DNA of 28,233 nucleotides, taken from Deltaproteobacteria bacterium (lineage in GTDB: Bacteria > Myxococcota_A > UBA9160 > PR03). Shown here one piece after another: positions 3-1,310 of the stretch (positions within the stretch are counted from its first letter, which is position 1; the number at the start of each line of letters is the position of its first letter). The position numbers and the translations under genes are program-made. Location of the stretch: positions 1 to 28,233 of the forward strand of contig JAGSPS010000001.1 in NCBI GenBank assembly GCA_018262315.1, in the 5' to 3' direction. The notes under the pieces were generated by a model. That model was not told the DNA's origin, searched no databases, and saw only the letters and a list, made by a program, of their open reading frames with translations.

Positions 3-1310
3 GCCAACTCCGGCTTCAGCCGCGCGGACGCGCAGGCCTGGCTCTACGAGCACGCGCGCGTGCCGGTCGAGCGCATCGGCGCGAAGAAGCTCGAAGAGGC
101 CAGCGGCTGGGGCGGCTGGGCCGCCGAGCTGGCGGGCTGGGGCGGCCGGATCCCGATCGCCCGCGCGCCCGAGGAGATCCGCATCCTGGTGGCGGGCGGA
201 CCCGGCAAGCACTCGGCGTGGATCCCCACCTTCGGGCCGACCTACAGCCAGACCCGGCCGATCGCCGTTCCGGCTCGTACACCCGCGCAGCGGCCGGCGG
301 CGCCGATCGCTGTCCGCGCGCCCGCCGTCGAGATCCGCGCGCGAGACGTCACGGCCGCGCCCGGCCCCGATCGCGTCGAGCAGGTCGTGGTCGTCGGCGG
401 CGGCCCCGCCGGCTACACCGCAGCGTTGTACGCGGCGCGGGCGAAGCTCGCGCCGCTGGTCGTCGAAGGCCTCCATCCGGGCGGCCTGATCCAGGAGACG
501 ACCGACGTCGAGAACTTCCCGGGCTACCCGAAGGGCGTGCTCGGACCGCAGCTCGCCCGCGATCTGCGCGACCAGGCGGAGCGCTTCGGCGCGCGCTTCC
601 TCGGCGGTGCAGTCGAGGCGTTCGAGCTGTCGCGCGCGTCGGGCGGCGAGCACCGCCTCCGGGTCGGCGCCCTCGTGCTGCGGGCCAGGACCGTGATCCT
701 CGCGATGGGCGCCCGGCCGAAGACGCTCGGGATCCCCGGCGAGGAGGAACTGCGCAACCGCGGCGTCGCGTGGTGCGCGGTATGCGACGCACCGCTCTTC
801 GCCGGCAAGGACACCCTCGTCGTCGGCGGTGGCGACTCGGCGATGGAAGAGGCGCTCGGGCTGGCGCGACACGCGAGGAGCGTCACCATCGTACACAGGC
901 GCGAGTCGTTCCGCGCCTCCCCCATCCTGCTCGAGCGGGTGCGCGGGGCCGAACGCGTCCAGATCCTCACCCCGTGGATCGTCGAGGCGTTCCTGGCCGG
1001 CGACGATGGCGCGCTCGCGCGCGCCCGGCTGCGCCGCGCCGACGGCGGCGCGCGCCGCGAGCTGGCCGTCCAGGGTGCCTTCGTCGCAGTCGGGCATCGG
1101 CCGCTTTCGGAGGCCGTGCGCGGCCAGCTGGAGACCGACGCCGACGGTTACGTGCGCTGCGCGAACGCCACCCGCGAGACGAGCCTCCCCGGCGTCTTCG
1201 CGTGTGGCGACCTCGTTGACGCCCGCTACCGCCAGGCGGTGACGGCGTCGGCGTCGGGCTGCGAAGCGGCGCTCGACGCCCAGCATTATCTCGACGCGGT
1301 CGGCGGGTGA
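3..1310 (+). CDS. trxB: 5'-truncated fusion protein: C-terminal part of an uncharacterised domain, a Pro/Ala-rich linker, and a complete NADPH thioredoxin-disulfide reductase
   Basis: The frame is open from base 3 (ANSGFSRADAQAWLYEHARVP...), so the listed GTG at 60 is not the true start. The reductase has FAD motif VVVVGGGPAGYTAALYAAR, redox CAVC (VAWCAVCDAPLF), NADPH motifs GGGDSAMEE and HRRESFR, and C-terminal TSLPGVFACGD...RQAVTA. Confidence 0.9.
   Translation, partial: ANSGFSRADAQAWLYEHARVPVERIGAKKLEEASGWGGWAAELAGWGGRIPIARAPEEIRILVAGGPGKHSAWIPTFGPTYSQTRPIAVPARTPAQRPAAPIAVRAPAVEIRARDVTAAPGPDRVEQVVVVGGGPAGYTAALYAARAKLAPLVVEGLHPGGLIQETTDVENFPGYPKGVLGPQLARDLRDQAERFGARFLGGAVEAFELSRASGGEHRLRVGALVLRARTVILAMGARPKTLGIPGEEELRNRGVAWCAVCDAPLFAGKDTLVVGGGDSAMEEALGLARHARSVTIVHRRESFRASPILLERVRGAERVQILTPWIVEAFLAGDDGALARARLRRADGGARRELAVQGAFVAVGHRPLSEAVRGQLETDADGYVRCANATRETSLPGVFACGDLVDARYRQAVTASASGCEAALDAQHYLDAVGG

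Follow-up and report, generated by a model that had tools for sequence, protein, structure and literature searches.

The UGSC proteins, introduced as the 'UGSC-containing protein' by Zhang & Gladyshev (2007/2008), form a selenoprotein family with no known function in the literature searched (PMC1976440, PMC2398784, PMC9312934, PMC13188914); they contributed 255 selenocysteine (Sec) sequences to the Global Ocean Sampling (GOS) survey, where they outnumbered every other family in several samples of non-marine origin (PMC2398784), and a 2026 review groups them with the largely uncharacterized selenoproteins (PMC13188914). A fusion of UGSC with a segment called Unknown_1 was reported in 2008, together with the suggestion of a Trx-like fold (PMC2398784), and Unknown_1 is probably the domain treated here. 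This uncharacterised partner domain of UGSC, of about 355 amino acids (aa), is given the working name ndom. The stretch analysed, hereafter the window, comprises the 28,233 nucleotides (nt) of contig JAGSPS010000001.1 (C33) of the Deltaproteobacteria bacterium assembly GCA_018262315.1 and is an entire contig of a metagenome-assembled genome (MAG) of 439 contigs and 85% completeness; its first gene joins the end of ndom, in one polypeptide, to a low-molecular-mass (low-Mr) NADPH thioredoxin reductase (TrxR). Thioredoxin folds are the usual substrates of such reductases. The published UGSC work differs from this locus in that neither a TrxR fusion nor a function is described there, and no description of a TrxR fused to the UGSC partner was found in the literature searched. 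The fusion is real, conserved and clade-restricted, and it probably belongs to a private relay that would run from NADPH through FAD and a CxxC dithiol to a Sec/Cys pair, feeding ndom as a putative reductase.

The reading frame at positions 3..1310 of the forward strand is open from the first bases, ends at the stop codon at 1308-1310 and covers only the C-terminal 435 residues of a protein 701 aa (75 kDa) long; residue numbers of ndom and of the full fusion follow P0002, which has that length. The parts of the gene that lie in the window are the following.

3..254, + strand: C-terminal 84 residues of ndom (267-350 of 701), assigned by homology, with the GGPGKHS and PTFG motifs inside
255..383, + strand: flexible linker of 43 residues (85-127 of the window product) rich in Pro, Ala and Arg, where the predicted local distance difference test (pLDDT) drops to 63-75
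384..1307, + strand: low-Mr NADPH TrxR domain, residues 128-435 of the window product (Pyr_redox_2, TIGR01292)
396..413, + strand: FAD-binding GGGPAG, read from the translation
774..785, + strand: redox-active CAVC dithiol, from the translation
825..842, + strand: NADPH-binding GGGDSA, from the translation
894..914, + strand: NADPH-binding HRRESFR, from the translation
1308..1310, + strand: stop codon of the fusion, with the next gene beginning 7 nt on

Since the frame is already open at base 1, the gene is truncated at its 5' end, and the absence of an upstream stop noted in the sequence-only reading is explained by a contig that begins within the gene, leaving the first 266 residues off it. 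The P0002 protein matches the window product at 100% identity across all 435 encoded residues, and the whole 701-aa gene is present on six independently assembled, near-identical metagenome contigs, one of which (L009) shares 99.8% DNA identity with the window over 10.4 kb, base 1 of the window corresponding to L009:10797. No other contig of the MAG matches the 10.8 kb upstream region of L009, so the first 266 codons of the gene are known solely from the near-identical contigs; the upstream extension proposed in the sequence-only reading thus stopped at the contig start within the MAG itself and was achieved on those contigs, where the full open reading frame (ORF) was translated. The junction of ndom, linker and TrxR is bridged without insertions or deletions by Logan contigs from four freshwater and wetland metagenome samples, one of which covers all 1400 bases tested and continues 1838 nt further upstream. 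A misassembly, which that reading had named together with a frameshift at the junction as a possible refutation, is therefore ruled out, and no frameshift was seen. The matches lie far above chance despite the roughly 70% GC content of the contig and its long ORFs in every frame.

The same reading had advised looking for this architecture in other genomes, and 29 clusters at 90% identity were found to share it, the linker measuring 20-72 aa in 22 orthologues, variable in sequence and always kept in frame. These observations bear on the possibility that the fusion is functionally meaningless, a housekeeping-type TrxB having lost the separating stop codon or the TrxR being translated alone from an internal start. 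A GTG near nt 388 could be such a start, and a close relative (L116) has no TrxR domain at all, both of which would fit this explanation; but the GTG lies in the VVVVGGG strand, and initiation there would delete part of the first strand of the FAD fold, while the joined architecture has been kept in the 29 clusters at 61-95% identity in spite of linker indels. A separate housekeeping TrxB exists besides, and unrelated lineages, in which the genes are ordered differently, have TrxR-family genes linked to UGSC-ndom, so that a meaningless fusion is extremely improbable.

The TrxR domain scores 129 bits against Pyr_redox_2 (PF07992; E = 3e-37; cut-off 26) and carries the complete motif set of low-Mr TrxRs, namely GGGPAG, CAVC, GGGDSA and HRRESFR, with CAVC or CATC kept in all fused orthologues examined. 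It does not reach the equivalog cut-off of TIGR01292 (305.7 and 308.6 bits against 343.45), which the housekeeping TrxB encoded on contig C100 of the same genome exceeds with 407.5 bits, and the two are 46% identical; on sequence grounds the fused domain is a diverged paralogue and not the housekeeping enzyme. A CPYC glutaredoxin-like segment was also observed directly before the housekeeping TrxB in the same frame (C100:5250-6188, L100, minus strand), which suggests that this TrxB may itself be a glutaredoxin-TrxR fusion.

On the near-identical contigs L009-L012, a UGSC gene lies directly upstream of the fusion (L009:9465-10004), where the gene calls split it in two ORFs, both matching PF24696. 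With TGA read as Sec, the upstream gene on L009 becomes a single UGSC protein of 179 aa with the motif FDUGSCASWSC and TGA at codon 95; it scores 107.2 bits with PF24696 (cut-off 25) and, with Cys in place of Sec, stays under the equivalog cut-off of NCBIfam NF041046 (97.2 against 125 bits). The TGA that ends this gene shares bases with the start ATG of the fusion, and an ATGA or GTGA overlap from UGSC to the ndom gene was found in all five loci examined. The upstream UGSC gene with an in-frame TGA that had been anticipated from the window letters is thus present, its stop overlapping the fusion start, although it is invisible in the window and in the MAG because the contig begins inside the fusion gene. 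A hairpin begins 4 nt past the Sec TGA of L009, with a z-score of 0.53 against shuffles, no better than shuffled sequence, and Rfam gave no match to a selenocysteine insertion sequence (SECIS) for this gene.

The pairing was counted over 80 species-representative loci, which span many bacterial phyla and include some archaeal records, and UGSC adjoins ndom on the same strand in 76 of them; three of the four loci without an adjacent UGSC end at a contig edge beside ndom, which leaves L062 as the sole true exception, and the UGSC-ndom pairing is obligate. Among the pattern-matched UGSC motifs, 56/60 carry TGA and 4/60 carry Cys. Fusions of the two domains occur in either order as well, with many UGSC-ndom fusions, including gene calls of 410-450 aa that start just past the Sec codon, and three ndom-UGSC fusions whose gene calls end at the TGA. 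The statement in the sequence-only reading that this family usually sits beside small UGSC/CGSC proteins is borne out by these counts. The N-terminal extensions of 45-110 residues in many of the 410-450-aa ndom proteins were considered as thioredoxin folds and rejected, as they are the post-TGA part of UGSC in truncated UGSC-ndom calls.

The AlphaFold2 (AF2) model of a natural CGSC-ndom fusion (P0036) reached a pLDDT of 92.9 and a predicted TM-score (pTM) of 0.93, a value that for a two-domain protein implies a defined predicted interface between UGSC and ndom. In this model, the UGSC domain is folded as a flavodoxin-like alpha/beta structure, its U/C-x-x-C placed where a strand passes into a helix, and does not have the thioredoxin fold; this differs from the Trx-like fold suggested previously (PMC2398784). 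In addition, the UGSC proteins of this clade (L009:9465-10004, L013, L014, L116 and P0036) display an extra Cys eight residues past Sec, in the pattern U-G-S-C-x-S-W-x-C, a position occupied by Val, Ile, Leu or Phe in the majority of other UGSC proteins.

The first 100 residues of the window product matched about 60 proteins of 346-733 aa (E = 4e-57 to 1e-27), whereas no Pfam model matches the first 110 residues and no Pfam or NCBIfam model matches P0002:1-372. An exhaustive search with P0002:1-372 showed how large the family is: at E <= 1e-3 it gave 4937 cluster representatives (clustering at 50% identity), and 1149 of these were still matched at <= 1e-30. The conserved motifs of ndom are GWTDGLP, AVMAGC, TTHP, CFAENE, GPEH and GGPGKHS...PTFG, only the last two of which lie within the window, and the homology search and alignment confirm that the segment before TrxB belongs to the family of about 350 aa, carrying the GWTDGLPVV motif, to which the sequence-only reading had likened it. 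In a 117-member alignment, the near-invariant residues are D34-G-L-P, N79-A-V-M-A-G-C85, T113-T114, N147, R152, D170, K179, C183, E186, H262 and G331-G-x-G, the only cysteines among them being C85 and C183, with Cys117 present in 47% of the sequences. The polar residues R152, D170, K179, E186, H262 and T113/T114 look like an active site. Tandem ndom-ndom proteins were also observed (P0107, P0134), and at L016:7066-8040, as in several alphaproteobacterial-type loci (L041, L043, L046, L048, L050, L052), ndom is immediately followed by another, diverged ndom-like gene; such copies could point to a heterodimer.

The AF2 model of P0002:1-372 (pLDDT 93.7, pTM 0.91) is folded to about residue 355 and shows no thioredoxin fold. 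Profile search gave no sequence relative of ndom in the PDB, the matches in the AlphaFold DB clusters and the ESM Atlas all came from the same family, and no convincing solved structural relative was obtained by PDB profile search, Foldseek or the wide VIA-align search, the best VIA-align match (Z = 5.4) being limited to a sub-domain. The sole Foldseek matches outside the family (PDB, Swiss-Prot) were class I fumarate hydratase and the TtdA alpha subunit, with probabilities of 0.66-0.89 and TM values of 0.2-0.38. These matches raise the possibility that ndom is an enzyme of the Fe-S hydro-lyase type with a distant likeness to class I fumarate hydratase or tartrate dehydratase. Its conserved cysteines would then bind a cluster, and instead of passing electrons to a substrate, TrxR and UGSC would serve to repair that cluster or its ligands or to maintain them in the reduced state. 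VIA-align likewise lists fumarase, Fe-S serine dehydratase, CyuA and PrpD at Z 3.7-4.4, and genes for MmgE/PrpD, enoyl-CoA hydratase and CoA-transferase recur nearby; however, Z values up to 4.4 fall under the usual noise level of that search (Z 7-8), the TM values are low, the profile search offers no PDB relative, and only two cysteines are near-invariant, the third (Cys117) being present in 47% of the sequences. An Fe-S hydro-lyase is accordingly regarded as unlikely.

Redox modules other than the fused TrxR were observed beside or within ndom proteins. In the actinomycete locus L115, a CGSC-type UGSC gene and ndom are followed 7 nt on by a separate TrxR gene; its product shares 40% of its residues with the fused domain, as well as the signature CAVC-[D/E]-APLF. 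In the ndom tree, the fusions form two clades within one well-supported group, and the sister of the clade that includes the window consists of actinomycete stand-alone proteins and UGSC fusions; given the UGSC-ndom-TrxR order in this sister clade, the fusion looks like the loss of a stop codon within a pre-existing cassette. Similarly, about 10 alphaproteobacterial-type loci have a TrxR-like gene directly upstream of UGSC-ndom, the products being 29-35% identical to the fused domain and carrying the CxxC pair without HRRxxxR. A second ndom copy in the same genome has a CPTC thioredoxin fold N-terminal to ndom (contig C347; L097:1-1428, minus strand); this gene is cut off by the end of its 2.5-kb contig, and any UGSC gene downstream would lie beyond that end. 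Clusters of TlpA/AhpC-TSA-ndom fusions also exist, and a metagenomic protein of 470 aa (P0220) joins the catalytic beta chain of ferredoxin:thioredoxin reductase (CPC...CPC...CHC; PF02943, 76 bits) to ndom. Disulfide-reductase modules have been recruited to ndom repeatedly and independently. The Rosetta-stone argument of the sequence-only reading, according to which a disulfide reductase would feed this family, gains support from the thioredoxin-fold and ferredoxin:thioredoxin-reductase fusions and from the adjacent TrxR genes. Two further candidates were rejected: P0005, a stand-alone relative taken as a natural split of the fusion, comes from an assembly with fragmented genes, and the 'TrxR-UGSC fusion' call at L016:4586-5480 is a frameshift artefact, the TrxR C-terminus being in another frame and the genes adjacent rather than fused.

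The genes that follow the fusion in the window are listed below; the order from 1318 to 6149 is the same in L009 and L013.

1318-2532, + strand: family III CoA-transferase, downstream context
2529-4313, + strand: FadD11-like acyl-CoA ligase, downstream context
4310-5299, + strand: extended short-chain dehydrogenase/reductase (SDR)/epimerase, downstream context
5259-6149, + strand: classical SDR, downstream context
6209..7267, + strand: selD, selenide, water dikinase (NF002098, 528.9 bits against a cut-off of 299)
7391-8608, - strand: acyl-CoA dehydrogenase, divergent, after the cluster
8698-10578, + strand: Baeyer-Villiger monooxygenase near PtlE (875 bits against a cut-off of 1100)

Upstream of the UGSC gene on L009, a divergent acyl-CoA dehydrogenase, a GMC oxidoreductase and a MarR regulator were observed. 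Over 84 loci, the recurring neighbours besides UGSC are TctC (22), SDR (17), family III CoA-transferase (15), enoyl-CoA hydratase (10), acyl-CoA dehydrogenase (8), amidase (7), luciferase-like genes (6) and MmgE/PrpD (6), from which a loose connection with organic-acid or acyl-CoA metabolism may be guessed. SelD provides selenophosphate for Sec synthesis, and in the window its gene is the last of the co-oriented run that includes the fusion, 59 nt past the second SDR. This position, together with the known reduction of selenium compounds by thioredoxin reductases, would suit a module that handles selenium and does not reduce an organic substrate, in which selenide, for example, is delivered or recycled for SelD and the TrxR supplies the reductant that releases it. 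Yet selD is unlinked in the closest syntenic loci L013, L014 and L116, the linkage being specific to this species; the genes recurring nearby are those for CoA-transferase, acyl-CoA dehydrogenase, enoyl-CoA hydratase and TctC, not selenium genes; and Cys-type UGSC-ndom(-TrxR) cassettes exist (four of the 60 motifs, and the CGSC of L115), a point that counts only if their hosts do not use Sec. A role in selenium handling is thus very unlikely.

The preferred reading, a private NADPH-driven relay, would operate through a polypeptide of three parts: an enzyme-sized ndom that works with UGSC, a flexible tether and a dedicated NADPH flavoprotein of the TrxR type. Electrons would pass from NADPH to FAD and on to the CAVC dithiol of the TrxR domain, and the tether would let this dithiol reach and re-reduce the oxidised Sec-Cys pair (U-G-S-C) of UGSC, which would be made from the translationally coupled upstream gene and pack against ndom. 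Alternatively, the acceptor of the CAVC dithiol could be the Cys85/Cys183 pair of ndom itself. The reduced selenol or thiol would then power the reduction of an ndom-bound substrate, which may be guessed, from the neighbouring genes only, to be an organic acid or an acyl-CoA derivative. From the sequences we infer the direction and order of electron transfer as well as catalysis by ndom. More broadly, UGSC and ndom might represent a new class of Sec-dependent (or Cys-dependent) reductase, run by NADPH via a private TrxR module and with a fold unlike solved structures, which would catalyse a reduction during the aerobic breakdown of organic acids or acyl-CoA compounds in many phyla of bacteria and some of archaea, a tentative proposal given slightly less than an even chance.

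Several observations weigh against the relay. The weakest link is that no thioredoxin fold stands between the TrxR domain and its presumed acceptors, and the predicted flavodoxin-like fold of UGSC is unlike the thioredoxin folds that such reductases usually serve. The close relative L116 retains the same gene order without the TrxR domain, and the tether would hence be helpful and not essential. In six UGSC-ndom fusions (P0102, P0105, P0146, P0195, P0206 and P0215), the Sec/Cys and the Cys three positions on are gone from UGSC, so a redox role of UGSC is not universal, and UGSC may also have a structural role; C85 and C183 of ndom are kept in these proteins, which argues that ndom has a redox or catalytic centre of its own. 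As for the host, SelA is present in the genome, but UGSC, the first 266 residues of the fusion and tRNA-Sec were not found in the 85%-complete MAG, and SelB is represented by only one cut-off SelB-like fragment below the score cut-off. Moreover, three congeneric genomes and ten sampled family members lack the operon (a comparison that included G053, G057, G082 and G131), and the closest syntenic copy lies in another family (G131), where the fusion is 78% and the FadD11-like ligase 81% identical; this leaves two possibilities for contig C33, an island of patchy distribution or a contig binned into this MAG in error.

Few selenoproteins of aquatic metagenomes are as abundant as UGSC, and although its partner ndom numbers cluster representatives in the thousands, Pfam and NCBIfam have no model for it. 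The electron source for this pair is indicated by the TrxR fusion and by the Cys-type cassette of three genes in the actinomycete assembly, and as this cassette would be a self-contained NADPH system that can be expressed without Sec machinery, it makes the function of UGSC directly testable. Close ndom homologues are on record from named actinomycetes too, besides the L115 assembly (GCA_039533385.1).

Compared with the UGSC family (PF24696, NF041046), the locus is alike in that the gene upstream of the fusion is a member with TGA in U-G-S-C, and UGSC is fused elsewhere to the same ndom. Compared with the housekeeping TrxB (TIGR01292), the fused domain shares all cofactor and active-site motifs besides its overall similarity, whereas it differs in a score below the cut-off (309 against 343), in being fused and in coexisting with a bona fide TrxB. 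AhpF and NTRC similarly tether a low-Mr TrxR by a flexible linker to the partner it reduces, as a dedicated NAD(P)H relay; their tethered acceptor is a thioredoxin fold, whereas no thioredoxin domain is present within the fusion gene of the window, and the place is taken by the 355-aa ndom, N-terminal to the TrxR, plus a separate Sec protein. The glycine/sarcosine/betaine and D-proline reductases (Grd/Prd) resemble the proposed system in combining a small UxxC selenoprotein with a larger substrate-binding protein, in drawing NADPH electrons via a TrxR system and in having genes amid carboxylic-acid metabolism. No similarity to GrdA, GrdB or PrdB (e.g., PF07355) was detected in the Pfam/NCBIfam scans of UGSC or ndom, for UGSC even at E <= 10, there is no sign of a pyruvoyl proprotein, and the hosts here are freshwater, wetland and soil bacteria, including actinomycetes, as well as haloarchaea, in contrast to the Stickland-fermenting clostridia of Grd/Prd. 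By analogy with AhpF and glycine reductase, a thiol/selenol relay driven by TrxR and feeding an enzyme would be of a known kind.

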